64,000 nt of DNA. It comes from an uncultured Actinomycetota bacterium. GTDB taxonomy: Bacteria > Actinomycetota > UBA4738 > HRBIN12. Under the pieces are notes generated by a model. It ran no database searches, was not told the DNA's origin, and saw nothing but the letters and a program-made list of their open reading frames with translations. Where the stretch lies: the NCBI GenBank assembly GCA_963762745.1, contig CAVXMB010000002.1:104554-168553 (forward strand), in the 5' to 3' direction. Below are positions 11,020 through 34,325 of this stretch, piece by piece; positions within the stretch are counted from its first letter, which is position 1, and every line of letters begins with the position of its first letter. The translations under genes and the position numbers were made by a program.

Positions 11020-11067
11020 GCGACAGACCTTCCGATCGTGCGGCTCAGTGGTCGGAACCGAGTGTCA

Positions 11068-11883: not shown

Positions 11884-11886
11884 GGC

Positions 11887-13377: not shown

Positions 13378-13595
13378 CTCGGTCTTCCTCGTGCCGATCG
13401 GGGGGCCTCCTCAGTTGACGCCTCGCCTAGCTTCGGCCAGGACCGGGCTGGCCCCGACACGCAGGAAGAGCGCGCTTCCACCAAGCTTCGTTGCGTACTT
13501 TACCTACATCGATAGGCGGGAAACATCGGGCGAAGGACTCGTCCGATGTACGGCTATCGGCGGGGGCACTGAGCGGTCCGTGAATGACTGGGAGC

Positions 13596-18909: not shown

Positions 18910-20259
18910 GTGCGGCGAGGATCTCGGCGTGATAATCGCCGAGTGCGACAACCCCCGAGCAGGTTCACCGGTGCGGGATGGTTGCTGCTCGCCCTCGCGC
19001 TGAACCTGGGTGTCGGACTGCTCATCAAGAGCCAGCCCACGATCGACGACGGACGCCTCCGAGCACCCTGCGCCGAGGGCGACTGGACGGACGGACGACA
19101 GTTCACTCGACTCTGCTACTCCGACATCGTCCTGCTCTCTCGCACCGAGCATCTGGCGGACGGTCGTCTTCCATACCTGGACCCCTGCCCTCCCGACCCC
19201 GCCCGACCTACCGCAGAGCCCGTCTGCGACGAGTACCCGGTCCTCACCATGTACACGATGTGGCTGACCTCCCGCGCATCGACCGGAACCGGCAGCTTCC
19301 TCCTGTGGAACGCAGCGTTGCTGAGCATCGGAGCTGCCGTCGTCGCGCTGAGCCTCCACGCGCTCTCTCGCGAGCGTGCGTTCTGGTTCGCTCTGGCTCC
19401 GACCCTGCTGGTGTACGCCTTCATGAACTGGGATCTGATCGCCGTGGCGTTCGCGACCGCCGGGACGCTCGCGTTCCTCCGCGAGCGTGATCGCGTGTCC
19501 GGCACGTTGCTCGGGCTGGGTGCGGCCGCGAAGCTCTATCCGGCTCTCCTGGTCGTTGCGTTCGCGGCGGATCGGATCCGCCGGGGTGACCGGAAGGGTG
19601 CGGCGCGAGTGGTGTTCTGGGGGGGTGGCACCTGGCTCGTCCTCAACCTCCCCTTCGCACTCACCGGATACGAGGGATGGAGCCGGTTCTTCCGACTGAG
19701 CGCGAACCGGCCTCCCGACCTGGACAGTCTCTGGTTCATCGGATGCCGCTGGGTCGCCGGGGAGTTCCCGTGCCTTCACTCTCCATTCGGACTGCTGTCA
19801 CCCCTGCAGCTCTTCAGCTTCATGTCTGGAGCTGCCTTCGTGGGGACCGTCGCTCTCGTGTGGTGGCTTCGAGCACGCCGCGACCCGGCCTTCCCCGTCT
19901 GGACCGTCGGACTCCCCCTTCTCATCGTGTTCGTGCTGACGAGCAAGGTGTATTCGCCCCAGTTCAGCCTCTGGCTGCTCCCCTGGTTCGCCCTGGCCCT
20001 TCCGGGCTTGAAGCGGGTCCCGGCCCTCGGCCTCTTCGCAGCGTTCGAGGCGACGGACATCCTCGTCTTCGTCACCCGCTTCACGTGGTTCGGGATCGGC
20101 GGTCCGGATCAATGGGTATTCGAAGCTGCGGTCGTCCTACGGGCCATCGTCCTCGTGGTGTGCCTCGCTGCGTGGGTCCTGGGGCCGAGCCCCACCTTGG
20201 AAGCAGAAGAACCGGCACCGGATCCGCGCCGCCTGGACAGCGGCATCGTCAGAGCGTGA
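18910..20259 (+). CDS. GT-C type membrane glycosyltransferase (DUF2029/GT87-like); start uncertain
   Basis: Polytopic membrane protein, with the LCYSDIVLL... loop after TM1 typical of DUF2029-type mannosyltransferases. Only about 20 nt separate it from the divergent PMT start, so one of the two starts is probably internal. Confidence 0.6.
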   Translation: MRRGSRRDNRRVRQPPSRFTGAGWLLLALALNLGVGLLIKSQPTIDDGRLRAPCAEGDWTDGRQFTRLCYSDIVLLSRTEHLADGRLPYLDPCPPDPARPTAEPVCDEYPVLTMYTMWLTSRASTGTGSFLLWNAALLSIGAAVVALSLHALSRERAFWFALAPTLLVYAFMNWDLIAVAFATAGTLAFLRERDRVSGTLLGLGAAAKLYPALLVVAFAADRIRRGDRKGAARVVFWGGGTWLVLNLPFALTGYEGWSRFFRLSANRPPDLDSLWFIGCRWVAGEFPCLHSPFGLLSPLQLFSFMSGAAFVGTVALVWWLRARRDPAFPVWTVGLPLLIVFVLTSKVYSPQFSLWLLPWFALALPGLKRVPALGLFAAFEATDILVFVTRFTWFGIGGPDQWVFEAAVVLRAIVLVVCLAAWVLGPSPTLEAEEPAPDPRRLDSGIVRA

Positions 20260-20456
20260 GGACGAACCGAGGAGCTCATCCTGATGCAGTCGATAAGCTG
20301 TCCTCAACTTCCGCGATCCCTTCCATCAGGAACGAGACTCGAGTGGACCCGAAACCCGCCAGCGATGAAACACGCACGGCCATCGACTCGGTAGGTGCGC
20401 AACCTCAGTCTGACGTCGGGACCTGTTTCGGGTACGCGGTGCGTGCGCCGTTCCCC

Positions 20457-21305
20457 ATGATGGCGATGCGATCCGGCGGCGGAGTTCCACTCGATGTGCT
20501 CGAAGCGGGGGATCCGCCCGAGAACATCGGGGAGCCGCTTCTTCAGTGGGTCGAGGGTGACAGGTCGATCGTGCGGCTGTACCAGGAGGCGACCGAGTAC
20601 CTCATGTGGGTCGATGGAGACGATTGGTTCCGCATCAACCCGGATGCCCCGTCCATCACGTGCATCGGCAGCGTCGGGGGTCCCCGCCGTGAGGCGAGGA
20701 TCTTCGGTCTTCCGGCCGCCCTGTGCTTCATGGCCCGCGGCCATGTGGCCGTGCACGCGGCAGCCGTGGACGTCGACGGTTCCGCACTGCTCCTCGCCGC
20801 TCCCGGGAGGTTCGGGAAGACGACGTTGGCGGCGGCGTTCGCCGGCCTCGGGTATCGGCTTCTCGCCGAGGACACCACGTGCTATCGCCCTGCCCCCGAC
20901 CCCGCGGTGCTGCCGGGCTTGGCCATGCTGCGGATCCGTCCCGACGTGTACGAACACGTCAGTCTCCCCGGCACCACGGTGGCGGCGGTCGACCCGGAAC
21001 GCGTCTTCGTCGTCCTCGATGAGCGGGGGCGGGGGGACAGCGAACCGGTACCTCTCCGGGGCGTGGTGTTCCTCCGCGTGTGGGATCAAGACGAGATCGT
21101 GCTCGAGCGGGTCGCGGCGGATCGGGTGATCTCGGATCTCTGGACGCTGACCTTCAATCTGCCGAACGACCGCTCACGGACGGAATGCTTCCAGGCGGTC
21201 GTCGGTCTGGCGACGGCGGTGCCGATCTGGAACCTCCACCGTCGTCTGTCCTTCGAACAGCTCCCCACCGTGATCGATCGGATCGTGTCGACGTGTCTCG
21301 CGTGA
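20457..21305 (+). CDS. HPr-kinase-related serine kinase (HprK C-terminal-domain-like), lasso-peptide-associated type
   Basis: VHAAAVDVDGSALLLAAPGRFGKTTLAAAFAGLGYRLLAEDTT matches the HprK-like P-loop core. The stop overlaps the B2 gene start (TGATG at 21303-21307). The portion of ORF 19677-21305 upstream of 20457 overlaps the previous gene and is discounted. Confidence 0.75.
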   Translation: MMAMRSGGGVPLDVLEAGDPPENIGEPLLQWVEGDRSIVRLYQEATEYLMWVDGDDWFRINPDAPSITCIGSVGGPRREARIFGLPAALCFMARGHVAVHAAAVDVDGSALLLAAPGRFGKTTLAAAFAGLGYRLLAEDTTCYRPAPDPAVLPGLAMLRIRPDVYEHVSLPGTTVAAVDPERVFVVLDERGRGDSEPVPLRGVVFLRVWDQDEIVLERVAADRVISDLWTLTFNLPNDRSRTECFQAVVGLATAVPIWNLHRRLSFEQLPTVIDRIVSTCLA

Positions 21306-21715
21306 TGCGTCCGGCGCCACCTCATCTGGGGCTTCCCGCCAGTGGGCGGTTGTTCGTTCGCATCTGGATCACCTTCGTTCGAGTGCGGTGGACGACGACT
21401 CGCCATCCGCTCCCGGCTGCGGTCGCCCGCTTGGGCGTGCCCGGCCCGGCCCCCCGCTACCGCCTGGAACCCCGCAGGCTCGGCGGCATCGTCGCCCGGG
21501 TATTGAGGTTCGGTCCGTGGCGGGCGAGATGTTTGTGGACGGCTCTCGTCCTGTATGTCCTGTTGCGCGACCAGCGCGATGCTGCCGACCTGGTGATCGG
21601 CCTTCCCTTGGAACCGAAGGACACCATCGCCCACGCGTGGGTAGAGATCGACGGGAAGGACGTCGGCCCGCCACCGGGACAGGGGCGGCACGAGGAGCTC
21701 GCCAGGTACTCCTGA
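21305..21715 (+). CDS. Lasso peptide biosynthesis B2 protein (transglutaminase-like leader peptidase)
   Basis: RCLWTALVLYVLLRDQ...DLVIGL...AHAWVEIDGKDVG gives the Cys...His...Asp arrangement and the HAWVE signature of McjB-C-terminal/B2 proteins. Confidence 0.8.
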   Translation: MRPAPPHLGLPASGRLFVRIWITFVRVRWTTTRHPLPAAVARLGVPGPAPRYRLEPRRLGGIVARVLRFGPWRARCLWTALVLYVLLRDQRDAADLVIGLPLEPKDTIAHAWVEIDGKDVGPPPGQGRHEELARYS

Positions 21716-21737: not shown

Positions 21738-23516
21738 TCACCACCTGGAGAGGAAGGCGTGAACGGATGCGAGATCCTTGGCCCATCCGTACTCCGCGAG
21801 GTCGAGGTTCTCGGCCTCAAGGCTCTCGTGGAGGAGGTCGTATCGGACACCGCTCAGCCGATGCTGCGGGTCCATGAGCCAGCGCCGAAGCTCCGGATAG
21901 TCGATACCGGCCCGCACGGAGTCGTCGAAGTACGTCTTGTCCCGCCGATCCAGGATCGCATCGGGGACTCGCCCGCGCAGCAGCCCTCGGACGAGTGTCT
22001 TCCCTCTGACGTCGGGGAACTTGACCTCCGCCGGCAGGCTCAGGAAGAACTCCCACAGGTCGACGTCTCCCCACGGACGTCTGCACGCGATGTCGCAGAG
22101 CTGCTGACAGGTGTCGTCGGCTTCCGTCGTGAGGCCGACGCCTGAGAAGGGGCTGAGCTGTACCTTCGCCCATCGATCCCGGGCCGGCACGATGCTCCTC
22201 ACCGCGGCCTCGTTCACGCGGGCGACATCGAGCCACGCTGGAACGTTCGTCCGCAACCGTGCCCACTTGTAGGCCGTGACGCGGGTAGGAACGAAAGGGT
22301 TGGCCAGGCTCTTCAGCGATGCCGTCAATGAGCCTCCCCGCGCGCGGCGATCCCCCAGCAGACGCGCGACCGCCCCCCACCGTCCGTGCCAGACGAGGTG
22401 AGGGATCAAGTACGTGGAGATGTCGAAGACGAATTCCGCCAACTCCCCGCTCAGCACGGTGCGGTAGCCGAGGCCCCGCACGTGCCGGTAATGCTCTTCG
22501 TACTGGGGCAGCGAGATCGTGGGCACGGGTCCATCCGCGAGTCGAGTCCACTCGGCGAGGCGATCCATGGGCCGGGCGTGCTGCTGGTAGAGATCAAGGG
22601 GCATCTGGAGTTGGTCCGCGACCAGGCGGGTGTACGTCGACTCGTCGACGGCCGGGTGATCGGGGTAGATGACCGATACGCCTCCCAGAGGACGGCCCTC
22701 GATCTCCAGGTGTCGAGATGCCCCGTACGCGGCGATCGCAGGGGAGTCCACGCCCCCGCTCAGCGACACGGCGTCCCGTCCGGTGAGGGTTCTCGCGACC
22801 GCCTGGGTCATCAGATGATCGAAGCGCTCCTTGATCTCCTCCGGCCCATAGCGCCCGGTTTCGAATCGATCGGTCGGATCCCAGTACCGCCTCAGCCGGG
22901 CGGCGCCCGAACGGTCCGCCACCAGGAGGGAGGCCTTCGGGAGTCGCTCTACGCCTCGGAGCGCGCTGGGGGTGTGCTCGTCGTACGTCCGGAAGTAGAT
23001 CGCCTCACAGACGTCCAGGTCCGGCTCTTCGGCGATGCCGGCGCCCGCGACGACTTGCTTCGCCTCAGAGGCGACGTAGACCGCGCGAGCGTCTCGACGG
23101 TAGAAGACAGGGCCGAACCCCAGATGATCCCGGAACGCCATGATGCGGTCCCGGTCGCTGATGACACCCGCGAAGACGCCGCGGAGCCGGGCGGGGAGAT
23201 CGAGCCCGAAGGCTCGGTATCCTGCGACCAGAACGTCGGCTACATCCCCGGACGACGATGGATGGCCCGCCTGCTCCGCCGCTCGCGCCAATCCCGCCAC
23301 GTTGTCGATGGTTCCCGCCAGTGCCACAGCGACCTCTGCATCAACGCCCAGATGAGCGTCATCGCGGCCCTCTGACGTCCCCACCGCGAGCGCGACGGCG
23401 CCATGCTGGACGAGCTTGGTCCGTCCACCTCGATGGGGCGCAGCCCGGATCATGTCCTCGACGACGGTCTCGTCGGGAACACCGGTGTGGAACAGGGCTA
23501 CGGAGATCGATCCCAT
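21738..23516 (-). CDS. Lasso peptide cyclase (asparagine synthetase B homolog)
   Basis: SLSGGVDSPAIAAY PP-loop. The N-terminal domain starts MGSIS, so the Cys nucleophile of true glutamine-dependent AsnB is absent. Convergent with B2 and immediately downstream of the small precursor ORF. Confidence 0.85.
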   Translation of the reverse strand: MGSISVALFHTGVPDETVVEDMIRAAPHRGGRTKLVQHGAVALAVGTSEGRDDAHLGVDAEVAVALAGTIDNVAGLARAAEQAGHPSSSGDVADVLVAGYRAFGLDLPARLRGVFAGVISDRDRIMAFRDHLGFGPVFYRRDARAVYVASEAKQVVAGAGIAEEPDLDVCEAIYFRTYDEHTPSALRGVERLPKASLLVADRSGAARLRRYWDPTDRFETGRYGPEEIKERFDHLMTQAVARTLTGRDAVSLSGGVDSPAIAAYGASRHLEIEGRPLGGVSVIYPDHPAVDESTYTRLVADQLQMPLDLYQQHARPMDRLAEWTRLADGPVPTISLPQYEEHYRHVRGLGYRTVLSGELAEFVFDISTYLIPHLVWHGRWGAVARLLGDRRARGGSLTASLKSLANPFVPTRVTAYKWARLRTNVPAWLDVARVNEAAVRSIVPARDRWAKVQLSPFSGVGLTTEADDTCQQLCDIACRRPWGDVDLWEFFLSLPAEVKFPDVRGKTLVRGLLRGRVPDAILDRRDKTYFDDSVRAGIDYPELRRWLMDPQHRLSGVRYDLLHESLEAENLDLAEYGWAKDLASVHAFLSRW

Positions 23517-23601: not shown

Positions 23602-23639
23602 AAGAAAAAGATCGACCGCACCTCTCGGTGCGGTCGATC
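23602..23639 (-). terminator. Intrinsic terminator/attenuator hairpin between the precursor gene and the cyclase gene
   Basis: On the minus strand there is a perfect 13-bp stem, gatcgaccgcacc-gaga-ggtgcggtcgatc, followed by tttttcttg. It starts 27 nt after the precursor stop. Confidence 0.7.
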
Positions 23640-23990: not shown

Positions 23991-25304
23991 ATGATACGCA
24001 GAGGCAAACCCCGAGGGATGGGCCGGGAGCCCACAGGTCGCTATCCTCTCCCGGTGGCGCATTGGCGCGTGCCCCCCACGATTGGTGCCCGGCTTCCTCA
24101 TGTGGAAGGGGCTCGAGCGCTCGCAGCCAGCAGCATCGTCGTTTTCCACGTGTGGAAGTACGGCTCTTCCAGCGGGCCGGCCAGCCTCGGTCCGACCGGA
24201 CGTCTTCTGCCCCACCTGGCATTGGGGGTGACGCTTTTCTTCGCACTCTCCGGTTTCCTGCTCTACCGGCCTTTCGCGGCCGCCCTGATGCGCGGGACTC
24301 CTCGTCCGGATCTGGCCGCCTACTTCCGGAACCGAGCTCTTCGGATCCTGCCCGCCTACTGGGTGATCCTCTTGGTCACCGGCGTGGTGATGGGAGCCAC
24401 GCTCGTCAGCTACGACCTCCAACGCGGATCGCTCGCCACCCGACCAGGTCTCTTGGTGCGGGATGCCCTCCTCGTGCAGAACTACGCCCCAGGAACGATC
24501 CTCACCGGGATCGGACCGGCATGGTCACTCGCCATCGAGGTGGTGTTCTATCTCGTGCTTCCGCTCTTGGGCTTGATCGCGTTCGCGCTCGCTCGACGGG
24601 CCTCGAACGACTCGCGACGTCGGAGGCTCGCATCGCTCCCACCGATCCTGGTGCTCCTGATCGGGGTCTCGGGGAAGCTGGTTGCCACGTATCTCGTACC
24701 TGGATGGGGCCCGGGATTCGGATGGGTCAACGACTGGCACTCCGTGCTCGAGCGCAGCTTCTGGGCACAGGCCGACCTGTTCGCGTACGGGATGCTCCTG
24801 GCGGTCGTGTCCATCGCGGTCGAGGACGGACGTATCCAGCTGCCGCGTGGATGGTGGCCCGTGACCGCCTCGGCGTTCGTCGGCCTCGCTGCCGCGACGG
24901 CGGTCGGCTTCGACGAGGGAGCGATCAACCAGTACGTCTACGACTCGTTGATGGCCCTCGCATGCGCCCTGTTCCTCGCTCTCGTCGTGCTCGCGGGGCG
25001 CGACGGCGAGCGGCGACCCTTCCTTCTGAGCTGGCTCGAGGCCCGGCCGATCGTCTGGGTGGGGGTGGTTTCCTACAGCCTCTTCCTTTGGCACGAGCCG
25101 ATCATCTGGTGGCTTCGGGACCGGGGCTTGCTGGTCGCGGGAAATGCCGCCGGAGACTTCCTGTTGAACCTCGCCATCGTGGGGACGGTTTCGCTGGCGC
25201 TGTCTGCTCTCACCTATCGGGTCGTGGAATTGCCCGCCCTCCGACGGAAGGCACGGACCCCGACACGAGACGAGGCGGTGGCGGTCGTCGCGGCGGCGCC
25301 CTGA
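23991..25304 (+). CDS. Acyltransferase family 3 (membrane O-acyltransferase)
   Basis: RLPHVEGARALAASSIVVFHV... N-terminus followed by about 10 hydrophobic segments, typical of the PF01757-type. The start is chosen at ATG 23991 because upstream ORF residues overlap the precursor gene. Confidence 0.8.
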   Translation: MIRRGKPRGMGREPTGRYPLPVAHWRVPPTIGARLPHVEGARALAASSIVVFHVWKYGSSSGPASLGPTGRLLPHLALGVTLFFALSGFLLYRPFAAALMRGTPRPDLAAYFRNRALRILPAYWVILLVTGVVMGATLVSYDLQRGSLATRPGLLVRDALLVQNYAPGTILTGIGPAWSLAIEVVFYLVLPLLGLIAFALARRASNDSRRRRLASLPPILVLLIGVSGKLVATYLVPGWGPGFGWVNDWHSVLERSFWAQADLFAYGMLLAVVSIAVEDGRIQLPRGWWPVTASAFVGLAAATAVGFDEGAINQYVYDSLMALACALFLALVVLAGRDGERRPFLLSWLEARPIVWVGVVSYSLFLWHEPIIWWLRDRGLLVAGNAAGDFLLNLAIVGTVSLALSALTYRVVELPALRRKARTPTRDEAVAVVAAAP

Positions 25305-25320
25305 GGCGACCGTTCGTTGG

Positions 25321-26490
25321 TCAGAAGAACCAGAGCCACCGGGTGAAGGTGATGACGCCGAGGGTGGCGAGCGGCGCGAAGACCGCCAACACGAGGTCGT
25401 GAGCGCGATCCCGCTCCTTCGTGAACGAGGCGATGAGCAGGACGATCGGGAACAACGAGAGGAGCGCACGAGGAACGCTGAAGTAGTGGGTGCTCACCAG
25501 GAGCGTGGCGAGCGTCGAACCCATGAAGGCGGCATATCCCCACAGACGCCTGGAGATGGCCCAGGCGGTGAACGCGATACCGACCGCGGCGGCAGCGATC
25601 TCCCCGGCATACGCGATCCTGAAATTCGCATCGAGTGACGGATCTCCGACGAACCGGAGCGTGGTGAGGAGCGCGGAGATCGGGCCTTTGAACTCCCGAA
25701 GCCAGCCCACGCGCTCGTCGGTGAGGAATGCGAAGGGATCGCCCCTGATGACCCAGAGGTAGGTGAGGTATGCCAGGAGCGGGAGCACCGCGAGAGACAA
25801 GGCCGCACCGGCTCTCACCAGGGATCTTCGTGAGAAGTCGCGTTGGGCGACGAACTCGACGACGAGACCGATCAGGAGGAACACTCCCGCCGGCCGGGCC
25901 GCCACGGCAACGAACGCCGCCGGGCCGACGGCGAGCCATCGACGTTGGCGAGCGTAGAAGAAGGCCGGGATGGCTCCGGCGAGGAAGAGCGGCTCACTGT
26001 ACGGTGCGATCAGGAACACCGCCGTGGGGAACAGGAGGAGGTACAGCACGGCCTTGCGACCGGCGCCCTCTCCGACCTCGGTCTCGGCGAGCTGGTACAG
26101 GAATCTGGTCGCCACCAGGGTGGCTGCCGCCGAGATCGTCAGACCCGCCGCGATCGGGGACAGGCCGATCCCGGACAACCCCCGCACCAGCACGGGCAGG
26201 AGAGGCCAGAACGCGGTGACGTAGCCGACGGTGCCGGGACCCCGGTATCCGTGCTCGGAGATCGCGAGGTAGTGAACCGCGTCCCACCGGTGCCAGATGG
26301 CAAGAGATCCCTCGCGGGGCATGTCCATCGAGGAAGCGAAGATCCATGTCGCGGCGTACGCGACGACCATGAAGACGATCCGAGTGACCACGACGAGGGT
26401 CGCCGCTTCCGCCCACGCAGGGTTCAACTCACGGAACCATCGTGCCCCGGATGCGATGGGCCGCCACGTCATGGGGGCCAAGCATCTCAT
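25321..26490 (-). CDS. PIG-V/Mannosyl_trans2-like GT-C membrane mannosyltransferase
   Basis: Polytopic membrane protein with HRWDAVHYLAISEHGY in the first loop (the WD..YL.IA..GY signature). Confidence 0.7.
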   Translation of the reverse strand: MRCLAPMTWRPIASGARWFRELNPAWAEAATLVVVTRIVFMVVAYAATWIFASSMDMPREGSLAIWHRWDAVHYLAISEHGYRGPGTVGYVTAFWPLLPVLVRGLSGIGLSPIAAGLTISAAATLVATRFLYQLAETEVGEGAGRKAVLYLLLFPTAVFLIAPYSEPLFLAGAIPAFFYARQRRWLAVGPAAFVAVAARPAGVFLLIGLVVEFVAQRDFSRRSLVRAGAALSLAVLPLLAYLTYLWVIRGDPFAFLTDERVGWLREFKGPISALLTTLRFVGDPSLDANFRIAYAGEIAAAAVGIAFTAWAISRRLWGYAAFMGSTLATLLVSTHYFSVPRALLSLFPIVLLIASFTKERDRAHDLVLAVFAPLATLGVITFTRWLWFF

Positions 26491-26574
26491 CGACCAACCG
26501 CTGCGGGGGTCGGTGCCCCAGGGAGGCGCTCTCGCCGGTCGGTATCATCGCGAGAACGTCGAGATCGGAGAACG

Positions 26575-27303
26575 ATGGTTGACACGGCGAAGCTCGGGAA
26601 GTGGATCAAGCCCCAACATCTGACCGAAGAGAACCTCGCCCGATATCGTGCTTCGTTCGCCGGCCACCCCGCTCAGCTGGTCGTGGTCGAGGACTTCTTG
26701 CTCGACGACGTCGCCGAGCGGATCAGCAGGTTCCTCGAAGGCGAGGCGCTCTTCGAGGAAGAGCACGGGCTGTACTCGATCGATGGAGCAGTGCCGCAGG
26801 CGGACTGGGAGTCCGCCGAGGACGACGACCGGCTCTTCCGTCTCTCCCGGCTGAAGGGGATCTCTCCCGAACACATGATGAGCCCGAACGCGGTCACCTA
26901 TCTCCGCCTGCGTCAAGCGTTGCAGCAGCCGGAGTTCAGGGAGCTCTTCGAAGCCCTCACCGGATTGGAGCTGGGGTCGAGCGACGACTTCGGGGTGCAC
27001 TCGATGAGCGTGGGAGATTTCCTTCGTCCGCACTCCGATGACGTTCGGGACCGCAGCATCGCCCTCGTGATGTACCTCTCGCCCGGTTGGAGCCCGTCCT
27101 TCGGTGGAGCCCTCCACATGGCCGACGAGACGGGAGGCGACACTCGGGTCGAGGCCACGTACAACAGCATCGTGGTCTTCGACGTCCAGGCGGAGAACTC
27201 TCACCTGGTCGCGCCCATCGAAGCCGCGGCCGGAGAGACCCGCAGGCTCACGATCGGAGGCTGGTACCCGAAGCCGACGGGTGCCGATAGCGCCGCGTCG
27301 TAA
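26575..27303 (+). CDS. 2OG-Fe(II) oxygenase (prolyl-4-hydroxylase-like)
   Basis: GGAG RBS at 26567-26570. FLRPHSDD (HxD) plus downstream SHLV and RLTIGGWY (distal His / Arg region). The upstream part of the 486-aa ORF is antisense shadow. Confidence 0.8.
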   Translation: MVDTAKLGKWIKPQHLTEENLARYRASFAGHPAQLVVVEDFLLDDVAERISRFLEGEALFEEEHGLYSIDGAVPQADWESAEDDDRLFRLSRLKGISPEHMMSPNAVTYLRLRQALQQPEFRELFEALTGLELGSSDDFGVHSMSVGDFLRPHSDDVRDRSIALVMYLSPGWSPSFGGALHMADETGGDTRVEATYNSIVVFDVQAENSHLVAPIEAAAGETRRLTIGGWYPKPTGADSAAS

Positions 27304-27306
27304 GGC

Positions 27307-28362
27307 ATGCCTTCCGAGGTCGGCGTCAGCGTCATCATCTCTACGCGCAACCGGGCCTCGTACCTCGAGGACTGCCTGCGGTCGCTCGCAGCGCAACTGG
27401 ACGCTCGGGTCGGACACGAGGTCGTGGTCGTGGACAACGGATCGGACGATGCCACTCCCGACCTGCTCGCTCGATGGTGTGCTGACCGCCCCGAGTTCCG
27501 CACGGTCAGGGAAGAGCGAGTGGGGCTCAGCCGAGGGAAGAACGCCGGGATCCGGTCGGCGAGGGGCTCATTGCTCCTCTTCACGGACGACGACGTCATC
27601 CTCCCGCCGGGCTGGATCCGTTCGTATGCGGAGTTCTTCGCTCGGCACTCGCCGGAAACCGTCGTCGCGGGTGGTCCGATCGTCCCGGTGCCCGAGGATC
27701 TCGGCGAGTGGCCGGCATGGCTCGAGGATGGCGCGCTCATCGATGTCGGGAGGCTGGACCACGGGGTGGAGCGTGAGTTGCAGCCTCCCGACTACGTGTT
27801 CGGCGGCAACATGGCCGTCCCCGCCGCCATCTTCTCGAGGCTGGGCTTGTGGCGCGAAGATCTCGGCAACACTCCGGAGGATCGGACCACCTTCGAAGAC
27901 ACGGAACTGCAAGACCGGCTCAGAGAGGGAGGAGGAACGGTCTGGTTCTGCCCCGAGACTCCGATCCGGCATCGCGTTCCGCGAGAACGTTCATCGCCTG
28001 CAGCGATCCTGCAGAACGCGTTCGGACGGGGTCGCAATGACTTCTGGAAGGAGGTCACCGCGGCGGATGCTGATCTCTCCTCCGCTCCGCGCGTCGGCGT
28101 TGTTCCAGGCCTGACCTCCCTCGTGGGGAACCTCGTGACCGAAGGCCTCGCGCTCGGTTGGTTCCGCCTCCGACGCCGAGCACCCGCCCTCGAGCGAGCC
28201 CGGCGAGCGGCATGGCGATCCGGCCGATCCTTCGAGATCCTGCGGCCGGGCAGGGACCGAACCCGCCTGTACGGCAGGATCGGCCGGGCCACCTTCCTGA
28301 TGCGTGGCGCGTTGAAGAGACTGGCCCCGCAGATCGGTGGAGACGACCGTCCCGGTCCCTAG
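27307..28362 (+). CDS. GT2-family glycosyltransferase
   Basis: VSVIISTRNRASYLEDCLRSLAAQ...VVVVDNGSDDATPDLL...LLLFTDDDV (GT-A fold, DxD). Confidence 0.85.
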   Translation: MPSEVGVSVIISTRNRASYLEDCLRSLAAQLDARVGHEVVVVDNGSDDATPDLLARWCADRPEFRTVREERVGLSRGKNAGIRSARGSLLLFTDDDVILPPGWIRSYAEFFARHSPETVVAGGPIVPVPEDLGEWPAWLEDGALIDVGRLDHGVERELQPPDYVFGGNMAVPAAIFSRLGLWREDLGNTPEDRTTFEDTELQDRLREGGGTVWFCPETPIRHRVPRERSSPAAILQNAFGRGRNDFWKEVTAADADLSSAPRVGVVPGLTSLVGNLVTEGLALGWFRLRRRAPALERARRAAWRSGRSFEILRPGRDRTRLYGRIGRATFLMRGALKRLAPQIGGDDRPGP

Positions 28363-29372
28363 GGATGGCGTCCCGTTCTCTTGCGGGCGCGAGCCAGTGC
28401 CCACACGGCGGGCCCCGCGCGCCACAGCACCCAGACCGGGCGATACACGTACGCCACCATCAAGCCGAGACGTCCGCGCTCGGCCAGCGGAGACCACGCT
28501 CGCATGAACGATGCCGGAGGGAAGATCTTCCGAAGCACCAGCCGCCCCTTGCCCCGCACCCCGGGACTCGAGACGAGCCAGTCGATGCCCAGAGCGAGCG
28601 CCGGAGCGCCGCCGCCCGAGCGGATCGCGATGTCCAATGGGGCGTCCGCCGGAAGCCCGAGCCGGTCAGCAAGCTCCACTCCCGACGGGGCCACGAGGCG
28701 AAGGCCCGCGGCAAGGCTGCCGAGCGCCCCCAGGCGTTCCGCGAGCCGCACCGTCTCGATCCACAGCTCAGGTGGGAGCCGGTCGATCGCGTGACCGAGG
28801 TCGTGTCGCGCTTTCGCGATGCGCGGCCCGTCTTTGGCCGTATGCAGCGCAAGCGCAAGAGCTCGAGCCGGAGGAGCGAGCACGTCGACGTCCACCCCGG
28901 CCACCGTCATCTGTTCGAGTCCTTCGGTCAGCGTTCTCCACACCGTCTCGGGAGGCACTCCGACTCCTGCAAGCGTCTGGTGCAGGTCGACGTCGACCGA
29001 ATCGCTCCGAACCCAGTTCCTCGAATAGCGGGGCCAGTCTCCTTCGATGGTCTCGAGTCCGTGTCGCTCGAATCCGAGCGCCTTCAGCACCTCCTCCGAG
29101 GCTTCCACTTCCGGATCCGGAACGAGCAGGTCGATGTCCGCATACCCGCGCATCTCGTTCTCCCGGTAGAGCCAGCGGGTGAGGGCAGGTCCCTTCAACA
29201 GAACACTTCGGACCCCGGCGCTGCGCCATGCGGTGACGATCTCAGCGGTTGCCCGATCGAGGACGAGCGTTCGCATCGCGTGTTGCATCTGGGGAGAGAT
29301 AGGAGGGTCCGCAGACTGCATGACTCCGGGGATCTTGGGATCCGGTTCGGAAGTAGGAGCCATCGAGACCAA
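28359..29372 (-). CDS. Nucleotidyltransferase family protein (PF14907 / NTP_transf_5-like)
   Basis: SAGVRSVLLKGPALTRWLYRENEMRGYADIDLLVPDPE...LKALGF pattern typical of the uncharacterised nucleotidyltransferase family seen in kinase-associated lasso clusters. The plus-strand 430-aa ORF here is Arg/Pro-rich shadow. Confidence 0.75.
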   Translation of the reverse strand: MVSMAPTSEPDPKIPGVMQSADPPISPQMQHAMRTLVLDRATAEIVTAWRSAGVRSVLLKGPALTRWLYRENEMRGYADIDLLVPDPEVEASEEVLKALGFERHGLETIEGDWPRYSRNWVRSDSVDVDLHQTLAGVGVPPETVWRTLTEGLEQMTVAGVDVDVLAPPARALALALHTAKDGPRIAKARHDLGHAIDRLPPELWIETVRLAERLGALGSLAAGLRLVAPSGVELADRLGLPADAPLDIAIRSGGGAPALALGIDWLVSSPGVRGKGRLVLRKIFPPASFMRAWSPLAERGRLGLMVAYVYRPVWVLWRAGPAVWALARARKRTGRHP

Positions 29373-29380
29373 CCTATCCT

Positions 29381-30394
29381 GTGCCCGTGCTCGAGGACCA
29401 GCATGCCCGTCTGCCGAACGGCCCTGAGACCCCTCTGTCGTCGATCGTGATCCCTTGTTACGACACGCCTGAGCAGTTCCTTCGAGAGTGCCTCGAGAGT
29501 GTCATCGCCCAGACCGAGGGCAGCTGGGAGGCGATCGTCGTCGACGACGGCTCCACGCGACTCGACGTCGATGCGCTGATCGAACGAACAGGTGACCCCA
29601 GGATCCTCGCCGTTCACCACCCCCAGAACCGGGGTGAGGCGGCGTCGAGGAACTCAGGGATCCGTGTCGCTCGCGGAGAGCTGATCGCCGCACTCGATGC
29701 CGACGATCGTTTGGCGCCCGATTTCCTCCGGGCGACTCGGGCCGTGCTCGACGCCTCCCCCGAGGTCGAGTGGGTCCTGACCGACCGGCAGTTGTTCGGC
29801 AAGGGGGTGGACATCCTTCGGTATCCCGACCCTCTCCCACTCCCTTGCCCCGTGCACTTCAACGCGCAGACCCCGGGGATGATCCGAAGGAGTCTCTGGG
29901 AAGCGATCGGCGGCTACTCGGAGGAGGAGGTGTTCCAGAGCGGAGGGGCGGACCTGGACTTCTGGATGTCCGCGGTGGAGCGAGGCGTCGTGACCGGACA
30001 CGTCACCGACCCGGTCTACCTCTGGCGGATCCATGAAGGGTCGCTCAGTCAGACCAGCTTCCGGTACAACAACCACCTCATCCATCGGGCCCTCTATCGG
30101 CGCCATCGCGGGTTGTTCCGCTCATTCGCGAAGCGGTGTCCCCGATGTCGTGGGCGACGAAGTCCGAGGCACTACGTGGGGAGCGGTTATTCGGTCGCGG
30201 CCGACACCTCGCTCCGCAGAGGAGAGCGAGGCCGAGCGGTGCATCTGGCCGTTCGAGGTCTGACGGTCGATCCGGGTCGCGGGAACCTGAGGCTTCTCGC
30301 GAGAACGCTCATCCCTTCCTCGGCGGCAGGGGCGAGCCGGATGTTCCTCGACAGACTGTCACGCTCCCCCCGCAAGGATCAGAAGGGGCGCTGA
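29381..30394 (+). CDS. GT2-family glycosyltransferase with a C-terminal CPRC-containing extension (paralog of 16501-17484)
   Basis: SSIVIPCYD...FLRECLESVIAQ...AIVVDDGSTR...LDADDRLAP. Collinear similarity to 16501-17484, including KRCPRC vs EPCPRC. Confidence 0.85.
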   Translation: MPVLEDQHARLPNGPETPLSSIVIPCYDTPEQFLRECLESVIAQTEGSWEAIVVDDGSTRLDVDALIERTGDPRILAVHHPQNRGEAASRNSGIRVARGELIAALDADDRLAPDFLRATRAVLDASPEVEWVLTDRQLFGKGVDILRYPDPLPLPCPVHFNAQTPGMIRRSLWEAIGGYSEEEVFQSGGADLDFWMSAVERGVVTGHVTDPVYLWRIHEGSLSQTSFRYNNHLIHRALYRRHRGLFRSFAKRCPRCRGRRSPRHYVGSGYSVAADTSLRRGERGRAVHLAVRGLTVDPGRGNLRLLARTLIPSSAAGASRMFLDRLSRSPRKDQKGR

Positions 30395-30403
30395 CCCGAA
30401 CCC

Positions 30404-30697
30404 TCAAGATGGGGCCGGCTCGGTGAGGATCAGGTCGCGCTCGGCGAGATCGGCCAGGAACTGCCGGATCTCCTCCTCGAAGTCGGGAGGCACATCCTGG
30501 AGCTGTGCTCTCAGCTCATGAAGGAGCACATCGACAGGCTTCTGCTCCTCCAGCAGGCTCCAGATCAAGACTCCGACTTCGTTCAGCCCGTGGTACGCGG
30601 CGGTGTCAAGGTGGAGGAGGACACCTCCTTCACCTTCCCCCATGCTCCTGGATTCGACACGGGGGTTCCTCCGGAGAAGGGTCGTCGTATCGATCAT
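30404..30697 (-). CDS. PqqD-family protein (stand-alone RiPP recognition element; candidate lasso B1)
   Basis: 97 aa. GGVLLHLDTAAYHGLNEVGVLIWSLLEEQKPVDVLLHELRAQL...EEEIRQFLADLAERDLI is a typical PqqD/RRE winged-helix pattern. GAAGGAAAGG RBS upstream of ATG 30697. Confidence 0.8.
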   Translation of the reverse strand: MIDTTTLLRRNPRVESRSMGEGEGGVLLHLDTAAYHGLNEVGVLIWSLLEEQKPVDVLLHELRAQLQDVPPDFEEEIRQFLADLAERDLILTEPAPS

Positions 30698-30782: not shown

Positions 30783-31331
30783 TCAGGGGAGCGGCTCTGC
30801 GTGACCTTGCCGACGCACCCGCTGACTTGCCTGCCAGACGAGCCAAGCAACAGCGAGCAGGACGAGGCCCGACAACAACCAGAGCGTTGCGTCCGAGCCG
30901 CCGAGGTCGAGACCTTCGCCCGGGGATGGCCGTCCGGACGACAGGACCACCGCTGCGAGGGCGCCCAGGCCGACGTTCCTGGCCAACATCAGCCGATAGT
31001 CGAAGATCCGACTCCCACCGAAGCATCCACACCCGAGCTTGTTCGTCCCGAGCACGATCCGGGTCCGGACGATCGCGACACAGAACACCGCGAGCAGTCC
31101 GATCGCCATCACGGCGCCCGATCTCTCAGCTCCCGTGATCAGAAGGCCGGCGATCCCCAACTCGATCCACGGAAGCACCAAGAAGACCGCCACTCGGACG
31201 GGACGACTCAGTCGGTATGAGACGAGATCCATCCGCCAACGTTCAGCTCGGATGACCTTCATCGATCCCGCCCATGCGAACGCCCCGGCAAGGAGGATCG
31301 ATGCGAGCGTCACCCAGCCATCTGACATCAA
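30783..31331 (-). CDS. MauE/DoxX-family redox-associated membrane protein
   Basis: Four hydrophobic segments and the conserved CGCFG motif (NKLGCGCFGGS). Confidence 0.8.
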   Translation of the reverse strand: MMSDGWVTLASILLAGAFAWAGSMKVIRAERWRMDLVSYRLSRPVRVAVFLVLPWIELGIAGLLITGAERSGAVMAIGLLAVFCVAIVRTRIVLGTNKLGCGCFGGSRIFDYRLMLARNVGLGALAAVVLSSGRPSPGEGLDLGGSDATLWLLSGLVLLAVAWLVWQASQRVRRQGHAEPLP

Positions 31332-31403: not shown

Positions 31404-33011
31404 TCAATACTTGGCGTAGTACGGATGTGTCAGATGATCCGAGTTCGTGAGAACGGAGCCGATCACGGGAGTCCCGATCCGTTCTAGGAGACGCCTGACC
31501 TCCTCGAGCGCCGATTGATCGGTCGTTCGAGCGTCCGCCACGACGAGGATCGCCTCGCTGGCGATGGCGAGCGCGATCGGATCGGATCTGCCGAGTAGCG
31601 GCGCAGAGTCGATGAGGATGAGATCCGCATGGCCTTCGAACTCGGCCAGCAACGCCGCGATCGAACCCGGGTTGAGCAGGGGGTCCTTGCTTTCAGGCGC
31701 CGGGCCTCTCCGTACCACGTGAAGGTTCTCGACGGATCCCACCCACATCGCTTCCTCGATCTTCTTCTTGCCCATGAGGACGTCCGTCAGGCCGGGGCCG
31801 GGTTCCGCGTCGAAGTACGCTTCCAACTCCGCTCTCTGGAGGTCGGCGGAGACCAGCACAACCCGCATCCCCGTCCGAGCGAGTGTCACCCCGAGATTGG
31901 CCACGGTGAGCGTCTTGCCTTCGGCTTCCATGGCGCTGGTCACCAAGATGTTCTTCGCTCCGAGCTCGGCAGCCGATTTCACGAGCCGGGTTCCGAGGAC
32001 CCGGAAGGCTTCGCTCACGGCCGAGTCGGGGTCCGTCATGGTCAGCAGCGTCGGGGAGGTCGGGATGAACAGCGGATCCCGTGGGATGACCCCCAGGGTC
32101 GGCACACCGACGCGTTCTTCCAGATCCTCTCTTCCCCGGACCCGAGCGTCGAGATGGTCCCGCAGGAACGCGATACCCACGCCGAGGGCGAGGCCGACGA
32201 ATATCGCGAAGGTCAGCGTCCTTCCATGATCGGGGCTGAACGGACCGAACGGGATCTGCGCGTCCTGGATGACCTCGCCGACGTTGATGTTCTCCGGCAG
32301 CACCAGGTCGTTGAGCCGCTCCTCGAGGAATCCTCGTTGTGAGAGCAACGAGTTGAACTGGATCTGCAGGGACGTACGGTCGGCATCCGACAGGTTCTCC
32401 TCCAGCAGCTGGTTCTGGACGTCCTGGAGCTGCAAGTCGATCTCGGCGATGCGTTCCTGGATCGGCCGGGACGCTGCCTCGAGGTCGGTCAGGACCTCGT
32501 CCCGCCGGAACTGCAGGTATGCCTCCGCGAAGGCCTGGGCCGTTCCCTGAGCCTCCTCCGGGCTTTGAGAGACGGCCCGGAACACGAGGGACTGCGTTCC
32601 TTCGACGGGGGTCACGTCGATGCTCGCCTGGATGGGACCCCCGAGACTGTCGGATGCGATCTCGGCCACGGCGGTGGAACTCCCCACGCGTTCTTCGGTC
32701 AGCATGTTGATGAATCCACCGGCGCTGGCCGGTTGCGTCGGATCGAAGTTCACGGGTCGCACCAACACCTCAGAACTCGCCTCGTAGAGCGGCGTCTGCC
32801 CGAACGAGTAGAAGAGGGCGGTGGGCACGACGACACCCAGCACTCCGAGGACCCACCACCTCCGCCGCCAGAGCGTCGTGAGATAGGTTCGGAGGTCGGG
32901 GGCGGCCTGGCCGGCCGGCGAGGGACTCCTCTTCTCGATCCGCTCCATCAAGTCGCCCACCCTGTCTCCATCCCGAAGCCCGTCGCCGTGCGGCCTACCC
33001 GCACGGCTCAT
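31404..33011 (-). CDS. Polysaccharide co-polymerase (Wzz) fused to a BY-type tyrosine autokinase; start uncertain (33011 or 32948)
   Basis: TM + chain-length-determinant region + coiled-coil + second TM, then VTSAMEAEGKTLTVANLG (Walker A), VVLVSADL, LILIDSAPLL (Walker B). The first about 60 residues of the 598-aa ORF are not protein-like. Confidence 0.85.
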   Translation of the reverse strand: MSRAGRPHGDGLRDGDRVGDLMERIEKRSPSPAGQAAPDLRTYLTTLWRRRWWVLGVLGVVVPTALFYSFGQTPLYEASSEVLVRPVNFDPTQPASAGGFINMLTEERVGSSTAVAEIASDSLGGPIQASIDVTPVEGTQSLVFRAVSQSPEEAQGTAQAFAEAYLQFRRDEVLTDLEAASRPIQERIAEIDLQLQDVQNQLLEENLSDADRTSLQIQFNSLLSQRGFLEERLNDLVLPENINVGEVIQDAQIPFGPFSPDHGRTLTFAIFVGLALGVGIAFLRDHLDARVRGREDLEERVGVPTLGVIPRDPLFIPTSPTLLTMTDPDSAVSEAFRVLGTRLVKSAAELGAKNILVTSAMEAEGKTLTVANLGVTLARTGMRVVLVSADLQRAELEAYFDAEPGPGLTDVLMGKKKIEEAMWVGSVENLHVVRRGPAPESKDPLLNPGSIAALLAEFEGHADLILIDSAPLLGRSDPIALAIASEAILVVADARTTDQSALEEVRRLLERIGTPVIGSVLTNSDHLTHPYYAKY

Positions 33012-33305
33012 CCATCCCGGCCACCCCTCCGCGACCGAGAAGCCGACGGCGCAAGCCTGAGTCCCTGCGATCTCTCTGTTGAGACCCTCGGATGAGGGAC
33101 AGAGAAACCTGATCACGGTAAGGGTACCGCTGTCCCCGGCCCGACAGCCAAAGCACCATCGGAAGAACATGTCCTTCCAAGAGCTTTTCAGCGCCCTCAC
33201 TCTCGGCTATCTGGCAGATTGGATACTGATCCCCGATATCCAACCCGGCAGCTTCGCTAGGGTGTTTGCTGCTGAAGGCCCCCATCACCGACTTCTGGAG
33301 CACGC

Positions 33306-34325
33306 GTGGCGGAAGTACTCACCAGATCACCTGGGAAGGACTCCGAGCAGCAACGTCCCCTGGCGGCGGAAGCTCTTGATGTCGTACGTCATTTCGGCGC
33401 GACGCGAGCCCTGGACGGGGTGTCGCTGCAGGTTCGCCAGGGCGAGATCCATGCGCTCCTCGGGCCCAACGGTGCAGGGAAGACCACGCTCCTCCGATCG
33501 TTCACAGGCCTCGTCCAGCCGAGCGGCGGAACGATCCGACTTCGCGGGATCCCGTCGGAGGAACTGGGCTACCGCGGGTACAGGAAGCTGTTCGGATACG
33601 TCCCGTCGGGTGATCGCTCCTTCTACCTACGGATCTCCGGACTCGAGAACCTCGTCTTCTTCGGCAGGCTGTACGGGCTGAAGAAGCGGAAAGCCTTCGA
33701 GAGAGCGTGGGAATGTCTTCGTGCCGTCGGCTTGGAGGAGGCTGCTCGCATCCGATCGGGCCTCTACTCCCATGGCATGCAGAAGCGCCTCTCGGTCGCT
33801 CGTGGCTTGCTGAGCGACCCGGTCGTCCTCTTCGTGGACGAAGCGACCCACGACCTGGACCCGGAGGGTGCACGGCGAGTCCAGGACCTGGTGTCGGAGG
33901 CTGCTTCGCGTGGGACGGCCGTGGTGTGGGCGACCCAGCGACTCGAAGAGATCCGTGGATTCGCCGACCAGGTGACGGTCCTCGATCGCGGGACCGTCCG
34001 GTTCCTGGGAACTGTTCCCGAACTGATGGCGATCTCGGAAGTTCGACGGTACGTGCTCCAGCTCGATGGCGGGACGTCGGACGCTCCGATGATCGCCTCT
34101 GCTGCGAACGACGTGCTCTCGTCCATCGCCACGGTCACGCTGGTGGAAGATTCTCAAGGCAGAGATTGTCTGCTCGACCTCGCGGATGGCGCGGTTCTCG
34201 GCGATGCGATCTCCGCGCTGACGGCAGCGGGCATCCACGTGCTCGCGTGCCGGGAGGATCGATCAGGTATCGAGACGGCGTTCCTGAATCTCACCAGGAA
34301 GACGGAGCAGGAGATCGACCCATGA
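33306..34325 (+). CDS. ABC transporter ATP-binding protein
   Basis: LLGPNGAGKTTLL (Walker A), YSHGMQKRLSVA (signature-like), VLFVDEATHDLD (Walker B). Confidence 0.9.
   Translation: MAEVLTRSPGKDSEQQRPLAAEALDVVRHFGATRALDGVSLQVRQGEIHALLGPNGAGKTTLLRSFTGLVQPSGGTIRLRGIPSEELGYRGYRKLFGYVPSGDRSFYLRISGLENLVFFGRLYGLKKRKAFERAWECLRAVGLEEAARIRSGLYSHGMQKRLSVARGLLSDPVVLFVDEATHDLDPEGARRVQDLVSEAASRGTAVVWATQRLEEIRGFADQVTVLDRGTVRFLGTVPELMAISEVRRYVLQLDGGTSDAPMIASAANDVLSSIATVTLVEDSQGRDCLLDLADGAVLGDAISALTAAGIHVLACREDRSGIETAFLNLTRKTEQEIDP

Follow-up and report, generated by a model that had tools for sequence, protein, structure and literature searches.

The window analysed here is a 64,000-nucleotide stretch of a contig from an uncultured Actinomycetota bacterium (CAVXMB010000002.1, assembly GCA_963762745.1), and its nearest named relatives are likewise uncultured Actinomycetota metagenome-assembled genomes (MAGs). 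Within it, genes of a lasso-type, ribosomally made and post-translationally modified peptide (RiPP) surround a block of candidate tailoring enzymes (23991-30394), for which a first-pass annotation had named an acyltransferase (AT3), a 2-oxoglutarate (2OG)-Fe(II) oxygenase, two family 2 glycosyltransferases (here GT2b and GT2c) and a PF14907 nucleotidyltransferase (NTase). We built a gene map by combining Pfam and NCBIfam scans with the public gene calls for contig_27101 of ENA ERZ25039588, a 760-kb metagenome contig to which the window corresponds in reverse orientation. Every one of the named genes was recovered with Pfam, and the lasso genes flanking the block proved to be real, comprising a putative HprK-like kinase, the leader peptidase B2, a putative Asn-synthetase-like cyclase and the PqqD-like protein B1, together with a 48-aa precursor. 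The window DNA has a G+C content of 63-71%, and many spurious open reading frames (ORFs) overlie real genes. One enzyme of the block, a minus-strand GT-C membrane glycosyltransferase at 25321-26472, had been overlooked, probably because a long spurious plus-strand ORF (25843-27303) hid it; since the GT-C gene occupies this interval, the oxygenase corresponds to 26575-27303 and not to the long ORF. Three markers of a Wzx/Wzy-type locus were also found in the window, namely an initiating phosphoglycosyl transferase (PF02397), a Wzy polymerase (PF04932) and a Wzc co-polymerase (PF02706 with PF13614). The best explanation of this arrangement is a lasso-type RiPP cluster nested in a Wzy/Wzc polysaccharide locus, with a tailoring block that is itself a mosaic.

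Profile matches to the core lasso genes varied in strength. B2 scored above the cut-off of the lasso-specific model NF033537 (lasso_biosyn_B2; 50.6 bits vs 33) and matched PF13471 with E=2e-17. B1 exceeded the PF05402 cut-off (50.1 bits vs 23.4, E=3.6e-13) but reached only 31 bits against a cut-off of 80 for the lasso-specific NF033536, and it is kept at 46-92% identity across related loci. The kinase gave a partial match to TIGR04352 (HprK-related kinase A) that was restricted to the P-loop region (E=2e-11, 43 bits vs a cut-off of 200), with a faint ScmC match on the public record, and tblastn recovered kinase homologs of 36-97% identity in every fully covered lineage. The cyclase matched PF00733 and PF13537/GATase_7, scored 115 bits against the cut-off of 525 for NF033535 (lasso-cyclase), and begins with MGSI, without an N-terminal catalytic Cys. 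Homologs of the ATP-binding cassette (ABC) exporter ATPase, at 49-67% identity, lie among the lasso genes of six related loci (L007, L015, L016, L018, L021 and L023). In L007, L012, L015 and L021, a MauE/DoxX-type protein adjoins either the NTase or the precursor; a CxxxCH motif is conserved in the core of the window subfamily, and a link between MauE and disulfide formation is possible. Overall, the window cluster has most of the features by which lasso clusters are recognised, with a precursor that departs from the acidic-residue rule and a cyclase far below its NCBIfam cut-off.

The precursor gene is preceded by a GGAGG ribosome-binding site and encodes MVYETPVVMDLGSIADHTF/TTPHGQTKGCLTGCHLDNFGEQSALAATP (48 aa; the slash marks the leader-core junction), in which the leader shows canonical lasso spacing (Y-17, P-14, V-12, G-8 and T-2). 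No Pfam or NCBIfam model matched the precursor when both libraries were scanned. Homologs were nonetheless found in 11 related loci, among 17 close relatives, and in 105 representative clusters (50% identity; P0258-P0362) returned by a profile search that covered 1.84 billion representative proteins. Ninety-nine of these representatives are short, and 97 of the 99 carry the lasso leader motif, with a shared leader ending in GSIADHTF. The close relatives have in common the motif T-T-P-x-G-x(1-2)-K-G-C-x3-C-H-x-D-x-F-x-E-x-S, and K27, D36 and S42 of the window peptide are conserved core residues; a Thr precedes Pro at core position 3 in most cores, and Ser, Thr, Pro and Ala abound in the tails. 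Fifty-two of 97 family representatives have Pro at position 3, as do all precursors encoded in loci with the oxygenase, the divergent core of L023 (DNPGKGDKG...) among them, whereas L016, whose retrieved region has neither oxygenase nor GT2b, carries DNS in place of TTP. On the 3' side of the precursor gene lies a hairpin whose 13-bp stem contains 9 GC pairs and carries a 4-nt loop, with TTTTTCTT coming next; it is the strongest terminator-like site in the 14.5 kb scanned and, placed before the cyclase gene, may be a device that yields more precursor transcript than enzyme transcript.

We assigned the oxygenase to a family by sequence and by fold. It matched PF13640 and PF13661 (E about 1e-13) as well as PF10637, and its sequence matches in the PDB included OGFOD1 (phmmer, 5e-10), Tpa1 and PPHD, the Pseudomonas EF-Tu prolyl hydroxylase. 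An AlphaFold 2 model (predicted local distance difference test score, pLDDT, 93) gave Tpa1 as the best Foldseek match (9e-14; query TM-score, TMq, 0.76), followed by OGFOD1, Ofd1, PPHD and PHD2, and both the iron triad (H153-x-D155 and H210) and the 2OG-binding R224 are invariant in 21 homologs. Because Tpa1, OGFOD1, PPHD and PHD2 are its best sequence and fold matches, the nearest characterised relatives of the oxygenase are enzymes that hydroxylate prolines in proteins. By sequence and model the protein is placed in the protein prolyl-hydroxylase clade, with hydroxylation of a peptidyl Pro as its predicted activity. It is also the best conserved protein of the cluster, at 54-60% identity across phyla as opposed to 43-55% for the cyclase.

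GT2b is a soluble GT2 enzyme (PF00535, E=1.4e-25) with no transmembrane (TM)-like segments, and it is 43-53% identical to orthologs outside the lineage of the window. Reading the junction from the sequence confirmed a 3-nt spacer between the two genes (oxygenase TAA at 27301-27303, GT2b ATG at 27307). Sugar deacetylases (PF01522) stand beside the oxygenase-GT2b pair in L021 (9033-9977) and L023 (8968-10050), with none in the window block, and L018 encodes a PIG-L deacetylase (8010-8735) not far from its precursor. The presence of such deacetylases in sister loci hints that the sugar transferred is possibly an N-acetylhexosamine (HexNAc).

We gathered related loci through homologs of the NTase and, separately, through homologs of the oxygenase, and mapped the window proteins onto them by tblastn. 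The NTase profile search, made with an 8-sequence alignment, contributed 2 genome and 9 metagenome loci, and most of the genomic context came from contigs encoding homologs. Eight lineages were adequately covered: the window group (L002, L005 and L013), L014, L007, L018, L019, L020, L021/L022 (a locus of the L008 type) and L023. The oxygenase, GT2b, precursor, cyclase and kinase occur together in all eight, whereas exopolysaccharide (EPS) markers, scored as Wzc, Wzy and Bac_transf, are in view in only four. Six of the lineages (L007, L018, L019, L020, L021/L022 and L023) had been reached through oxygenase homologs of 54-60% identity without selection, and all six carry the precursor, cyclase, kinase and, where in view, B1/B2 within 10 kb. 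L019 is a compact same-strand operon (PqqD-B2-C-K-A-2OG-GT2) with unrelated flanks, L007 is a lasso cluster compacted into 10 kb, and neither has an EPS gene within it. The retrieved regions of L020, from a Gemmatimonadaceae MAG and thus from a different phylum, and of L023, from an unclassified bacterium in which zinc-uptake genes form the flanks, contain no EPS marker. An apparent counter-example, L008/L009/L010, showed the oxygenase, GT2b, NTase, MauE, AT3 and EPS genes without lasso genes, but re-centring on its oxygenase (P0151) placed lasso genes 1-7 kb upstream.

The first-pass annotation had regarded the adjoining oxygenase and GT2 genes as a hydroxylase-glycosyltransferase coupling, and had suggested that comparing co-occurrence with the cyclase and with EPS genes would tell whether the block serves the peptide. 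GT2b directly follows the oxygenase in seven of the eight lineages (L018 is the exception), and the coupling stands because the pair tracks the precursor, cyclase and kinase in every lineage and the EPS markers in half. The pair therefore does not follow the EPS genes at the expense of the cyclase. The same comparison splits the block: the oxygenase-GT2b pair travels with the lasso genes in this way, and GT-C and GT2c are found only in close relatives. In L013 (ERZ25039547) and L014 (ERZ25039591) the cyclase, oxygenase, AT3, GT-C, Wzc and precursor genes are split or frameshifted by what look like assembly indels, which lowers their apparent identities. Together, these observations indicate that the oxygenase-GT2b pair, which accompanies the genes for the peptide in two or more bacterial phyla, probably decorates the peptide.

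Table 1. Genes and other features of the lasso-type cluster and the surrounding polysaccharide locus (window coordinates).
Feature	Position	Strand	Profile match or remark
WecG	11068-11886	-	
Bac_transf, initiating phosphoglycosyl transferase	11887-13410	-	PF02397
GT4	13596-14741	-	
Wzy_C	14742-16334	-	PF04932
GT2a	16555-17484	+	Adjoins Wzy and PMT
PMT-type GT-C, protein O-mannosyltransferase-like membrane enzyme	17498-18889	-	PF02366/PF16192
GT87-family GT-C membrane glycosyltransferase	18943-20259	+	PF09594
HprK-like kinase (lasso K)	20343-21305	+	P-loop GRFGKTT
Lasso B2 leader peptidase, transglutaminase-like	21305-21715	+	PF13471, NF033537
Asn-synthetase-like macrolactam synthetase (lasso C)	21738-23516	-	PF00733, PF13537
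Intrinsic-terminator-like hairpin and T-run	23610-23639	-	Between precursor gene and cyclase
Precursor gene, 48 aa	23666-23812	-	Public call and sequence reading
AT3, integral-membrane acyltransferase	24018-25304	+	PF01757
PIG-V-like GT-C membrane glycosyltransferase	25321-26472	-	PF04188
2OG-Fe(II) oxygenase, 242 aa	26575-27303	+	PF13640, PF13661, PF10637
GT2b, soluble GT2 glycosyltransferase	27307-28362	+	PF00535
NTase, PsmN-like	28359-29363	-	PF14907
GT2c, soluble GT2 glycosyltransferase	29381-30394	+	PF00535
PqqD-like RiPP recognition element (lasso B1)	30404-30697	-	PF05402
MauE/DoxX-type membrane protein	30783-31328	-	PF07291, E=7e-17
Wzc-type chain-length determinant/tyrosine autokinase	31404-33170	-	PF02706, PF13614, TIGR01007
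ABC exporter ATPase, probable lasso D	33306-34325	+	PF00005

The gene map contains several irregularities. When mapped to the window, the public rows for the precursor, AT3 and GT-C genes are shifted by 1 nt relative to the others, and the public caller shortened the GT4 gene to 175 aa. A 759-aa protein on the margin of the polysaccharide locus (8785-11064, minus strand), flanked by a GT4 gene and WecG, gave only weak APH (phosphotransferase) and AAA_16 matches. Just past the ABC transporter genes, a 705-aa ORF (35822-37939, minus strand) has no Pfam match, a G+C content of 0.82 at third codon positions (GC3) and odd values of 0.53 and 0.57 at the first and second positions (GC1/GC2).

The NTase is the second enzyme of the block that points towards the peptide. 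It is a confident PF14907 (NTP_transf_5) member (E=4e-26, 92.5 bits vs a cut-off of 31.2) with no TM-like segments, and its D76-x-D78 motif is invariant in homologs. The AlphaFold 2 model (pLDDT 85) matched MenT1, LnuA, ANT(2'')-Ia (5cfs and 4xje) and FKRP in Foldseek; 5cfs and 4xje are the structures reported as remote relatives of PsmN, the enzyme needed to add one or two hexoses onto the phosphate that PsmK makes on the C-terminal Ser of pseudomycoidin (PMC6993621). Lasso genes accompany relatives of the NTase in the window group and in L014, L007, L012, L015, L016, L018, L021 and L023, and three homologs (P0071, P0075 and P0079) are fused to a B2 domain, a fusion also known from Firmicutes clusters (PMC8498205). 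The L019 cluster has no NTase, and the NTase of L017 (39% identity) has neither lasso nor EPS neighbours. In L023 the NTase (13768-15795, 675 aa) contains two PF14907 stretches, a tandem duplication within one protein. The proposal that the NTase tailors the peptide was thus supported by the lasso context of most relatives, the B2 fusions and the PsmN-like predicted fold, with the added twist that its most constant direct neighbour in Actinomycetota is Wzc; the Wzc and NTase genes often overlap, and in the window the two are separated by MauE, PqqD and GT2c.

The NTase gene lies between the two GT2 genes of the block, and the junctions on both sides agreed with the earlier description. The gene converges on GT2b with overlapping ends (GT2b stop TAG at 28360-28362; NTase stop at 28359-28361 on the opposite strand) and diverges from GT2c, with the NTase starting at ATG 29363 (TTG 29372 in the first-pass annotation) and GT2c at GTG 29381. 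The 8-17 nt between these starts leave no space for two promoters, so that at least one start, or the placement of the promoters, must differ from the annotation.

The remaining block enzymes have a narrower distribution. AT3 is a PF01757 (Acyl_transf_3) protein (E=9.5e-30) with about 8-9 TM-like segments in a hydropathy scan. Its start is ambiguous between ATG 23991, chosen at first pass, and the in-frame ATG 24018 of the public call, and the longest possible ORF, from 23754, would run into the precursor gene. Orthologs of 55-84% identity are present in L002, L005, L013, L014 and L008, and a distant relative of 26-27% identity in L020; none was found in the retrieved parts of L007, L015, L016, L018, L019 or L023, making AT3 a frequent accessory present in about half of the lineages. 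L002, L005 and L013, all close relatives, were the only loci with a copy of GT-C (PF04188, E=2e-7; 8 TM-like segments), which is 76-89% identical there, and orthologs of GT2c (PF00535, E=4.3e-27; no TM-like segments) occurred only in L002, L003 and L013; both genes are confined to lineages with 67-88% NTase identity. GT2c is a paralog of GT2a (47% identity over 293 aa), whereas it aligns with GT2b over only 89 aa, at 33%. Characterised PF01757 members acylate sugars. The first-pass analogy between the acyltransferase and the acetylation step known for lasso peptides was not supported in the form given, as AT3 is a polytopic membrane O-acyltransferase of patchy occurrence and the known lasso acetylation, in albusnodin, is on the epsilon-amine of Lys10 (PMC9266682). 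The broader proposal that the block tailors the peptide has support where the oxygenase and GT2b are concerned and, for the most part, in the case of the NTase; for the acyltransferase it is not supported in the form argued.

Further membrane glycosyltransferases accompany the lasso genes outside the block. The window PMT matched the NCBIfam protein O-mannosyltransferase model (E=5e-40, below its cut-off), and PMT homologs of 43-45% identity lie next to the lasso genes of L018 and of L020. GT87 genes likewise stand among the lasso genes of L014 and L020. In L020 (GCA_035758925.1, 457-14696), GT87, PMT, AT3 and two unannotated proteins with 11-12 TM segments are interleaved with the lasso genes, and L014 and L015 encode polytopic membrane proteins with sub-threshold PMT_2 similarity; comparison of the window GT-C with the unannotated polytopic proteins of L020, L014 and L015 found no homology. 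AT3, GT-C and GT2c are lineage-restricted additions that most likely build or acylate a glycan at the membrane, and that glycan could be carried by the exported peptide or belong to the Wzy-dependent polymer. Because L020 has PMT, GT87 and AT3 with no Wzc or Wzy in view, AT3 and GT-C in the block, and PMT and GT87 outside it, may act at the membrane to extend a glycan on the peptide rather than the polysaccharide.

We favour, with moderate confidence, a composite explanation in which a family of lasso-like peptides bearing hydroxyproline-linked glycosylation would be encoded within a Wzy/Wzc locus. In such a pathway, B1 would bind the YxxP leader of the 48-aa precursor, the oxygenase would hydroxylate the conserved Pro22 (core position 3, within the TTP motif), and GT2b would add a sugar, possibly a HexNAc, to the new hydroxyl. 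Pro22 is proposed as the site because of the presence of Pro at position 3 in all oxygenase-bearing loci and of DNS in L016. The HprK-like kinase would then phosphorylate a Ser. Here the first-pass analogy to kinases that modify a C-terminal Ser is imperfect, as the window peptide ends in AATP (41 of 97 family representatives do end in Ser). Since the peptide lacks a C-terminal Ser, the candidate target is the conserved Ser of D-x-F-x-E-x-S. The NTase would add a group onto that phosphate, as PsmN does, whereupon B2 and the Asn-synthetase-like enzyme would process and cyclise the peptide for export by the ABC transporter. The cytoplasmic part of the tailoring would thus consist of the soluble oxygenase, its translationally coupled GT2b and the NTase.

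We weighed this composite explanation against readings that assign the enzymes to the polysaccharide. If all six block enzymes served the Wzy/Wzc polysaccharide, the lasso genes would be accidental neighbours and the peptide would be unmodified. Such a reading draws on the flanking WecG, Bac_transf, GT4, Wzy_C and Wzc genes, on the fact that AT3, GT-C and GT2 are typical polysaccharide enzyme families, and on the NTase, which lies directly 3' of Wzc in the Actinomycetota loci L006, L008/L021, L015, L016, L018 and P0060, the last being a Wzc-NTase-Wzy arrangement in which no lasso gene appears between 6.5 kb upstream and 10 kb downstream. The P0060 exception is not decisive, because its NTase is sister in the tree to the one from L021, a locus with lasso genes at a distance of 10-16 kb. 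We consider this reading very unlikely in view of the oxygenase-GT2b pairs that accompany lasso genes with no EPS marker in the retrieved region (L019, L020, L023 and L007), the placement of the oxygenase in a protein prolyl-hydroxylase clade and not a sugar-modifying one, the existence of NTase-B2 fusion proteins and the experimental tie between PsmN and a lasso peptide (PMC6993621). A reading in which the whole locus forms one system deserves more attention, although we still regard it as unlikely. Here the modified peptide would be coupled to the polysaccharide pathway, as an acceptor or primer or as a regulator of Wzc; a polyprenol-built glycan would be moved by a Wzy_C- or GT-C-type enzyme, and AT3, the GT-C enzymes and GT2c would modify the glycan on the peptide. 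Lasso genes are indeed nested with Wzc, Wzy, Bac_transf and glycosyltransferases in the window, L014, L018 and L021/L008, in independently rearranged orders, with at least Wzc visible in L015 and L016, and the window Wzc sits between B1/MauE and the ABC exporter. The membrane enzymes among the lasso genes of the Gemmatimonadaceae locus, the recurring sub-threshold PMT_2-like proteins of L014 and L015 and the Ser/Thr/Pro/Ala-rich tails of the peptides fit as well. Coupling cannot be obligatory, however, since L019 and L007 are compact and lack such genes; the nesting could reflect only shared regulation or sugar supply, the AT3 of L020 is just 26-27% identical to that of the window, and the link between peptide and glycan is hypothetical.

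The chemistry of the oxygenase and GT2b can also be read in other ways. The oxygenase might act on a residue other than Pro (the conserved Lys, Asp or an Asn), with GT2b glycosylating there or on Thr/Ser. CanE, an Fe/2OG-dependent Asp beta-hydroxylase acting on a lasso precursor, provides a precedent (PMC9266682), and the conservation of K27, D36 and S42 and the Thr that precedes Pro3 in most cores would offer substrates. The closest relatives of the oxygenase by sequence and fold are nevertheless prolyl hydroxylases; the oxygenase-less L016 keeps the Lys-Gly and Asp motif and not Pro3, and L023 retains Pro3 preceded by Asn rather than Thr, all of which makes a non-Pro target improbable. GT2b, in turn, might be a polyprenol-phosphate sugar synthase feeding PMT, as the adjoining GT2b and PMT genes of L018 could suggest; its lack of TM segments argues otherwise, as does the finding that ArnC/PpgS-type NCBIfam matches were obtained for GT2c only. 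The most far-reaching version of the hypothesis, a cross-phylum lasso-like family with glycosylated hydroxyproline, non-canonical ring maturation (in ring position, through a second cleavage or through a Lys-based isopeptide) and a peptide integrated in the Wzy/Wzc pathway of Actinomycetota, appears doubtful to us as a whole.

Several observations weigh against the composite explanation itself. The analysis itself establishes gene identities, junctions, predicted folds, conserved catalytic residues, compartments and the pattern of co-occurrence; we infer every chemical step and substrate, and the assignments are made by analogy. The correlation between Pro3 and the oxygenase has a single negative locus, L016, and L015 has Pro3 with its oxygenase, if any, outside the retrieved 21 kb. 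PolD, a relative of the oxygenase in the PDB, works in a small-molecule pathway, and the GT2b ortholog of L018 adjoins PMT, 6 kb from the oxygenase. The frequent position of Wzc directly upstream of the NTase and the lasso-free surroundings of P0060 also speak for the polysaccharide, and PadeK and PsmK act on a C-terminal Ser where the window precursor has a Pro. Positions 7-9 of the window core, counted after HTF, are T, K and G, with no Asp or Glu, and only 13 of 97 family cores have an acidic residue there when counted from the canonical junction, so that the peptide may not be a conventional lasso. A conserved Lys does lie 8-10 residues before the conserved Asp (38 cases with a distance of 9 residues, 14 with 8 and 12 with 10), and a 9-residue G..D spacing arises only if the N-terminus is Gly28, which follows that Lys. 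Possible rings therefore include one made after a second cleavage behind the Lys (GCLTGCHLD, a 9-residue ring), one with the Lys side chain as nucleophile, or an unusually large ring. The TTP segment could be lost during maturation, in which case its glycosylation would be puzzling.

In the literature searched we found no account of this peptide family, of lasso clusters that pair a prolyl-hydroxylase-type oxygenase with a GT2 enzyme, or of lasso genes nested in Wzy/Wzc loci. We know of no report of glycosylated hydroxyproline in bacterial RiPPs, and to our knowledge few tailoring reactions have been described for lasso peptides, a much-used scaffold. If the composite explanation is correct, the conserved module of hydroxylase and glycosyltransferase would extend RiPP chemistry by hydroxyproline glycosylation, and a protein prolyl hydroxylase would gain a small, defined and genetically linked substrate. 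The precursor family calls into question the usual rule that a lasso core carries an acidic residue at positions 7-9. The repeated nesting and the pairing of Wzc with the NTase raise the question of whether a ribosomal peptide helps to build or control a surface glycan in bacteria.

Among known systems, the pseudomycoidin and paeninodin clusters of Firmicutes share with the window a lasso-type A/B1/B2/C set (its cyclase a putative one in the window), a kinase that in the window is putatively HprK-like, an NTP-transferase-type NTase and an ABC exporter, and NTase-B2 fusions exist in both groups. The window NTase has the DxD motif reported for PsmN and an ANT(2'')-like fold in common with it, a likeness seen through reported structural relatives. 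The clusters described here differ in that the window precursor ends in Pro rather than Ser and has no acidic residue at core positions 7-9, in the addition of a prolyl-hydroxylase-like oxygenase with its GT2, of MauE and of GT-C enzymes, and in the coupling of the NTase to Wzc in Actinomycetota. The canucin cluster also contains a 2OG-Fe(II) oxygenase gene, whose product CanE, assisted by B1, modifies the precursor in its linear form (PMC9266682); the window enzyme is set apart from CanE, going by the description of the latter, as a GT2-coupled member of the Tpa1/OGFOD1/PHD type. With the protein prolyl hydroxylases it shares the double-stranded beta-helix (DSBH) fold, the HxD...H triad and the 2OG-binding Arg. 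The logic proposed for the oxygenase-GT2b pair also governs the eukaryotic Skp1 hydroxyproline-glycosylation pathway, in which a hydroxylase creates the acceptor for a glycosyltransferase; the window oxygenase differs from the protein prolyl hydroxylases and the Skp1 system as a 242-aa bacterial protein in a RiPP cluster, with a 48-aa putative substrate and a GT2 partner. Glycocin GT2 enzymes such as SunS offer another possible parallel, being soluble, encoded beside a RiPP precursor and active in glycosylating the peptide; glycocins, however, are not lasso peptides and carry their sugars on Cys, Ser or Thr residues that are not hydroxylated beforehand. AlbT of the albusnodin type is a soluble Lys acetyltransferase, unlike the window AT3 with its approximately 8-9 TM-like segments. 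Finally, the Bac_transf, WecG, GT4, Wzy_C, Wzc, GT2 and AT3 genes around and within the block are those of Wzx/Wzy loci with Wzc. Such loci normally carry no RiPP precursor, B1/B2/C genes, HprK-like kinase or prolyl-hydroxylase-like oxygenase, and the oxygenase-GT2b pair that distinguishes the window also occurs where they are absent.

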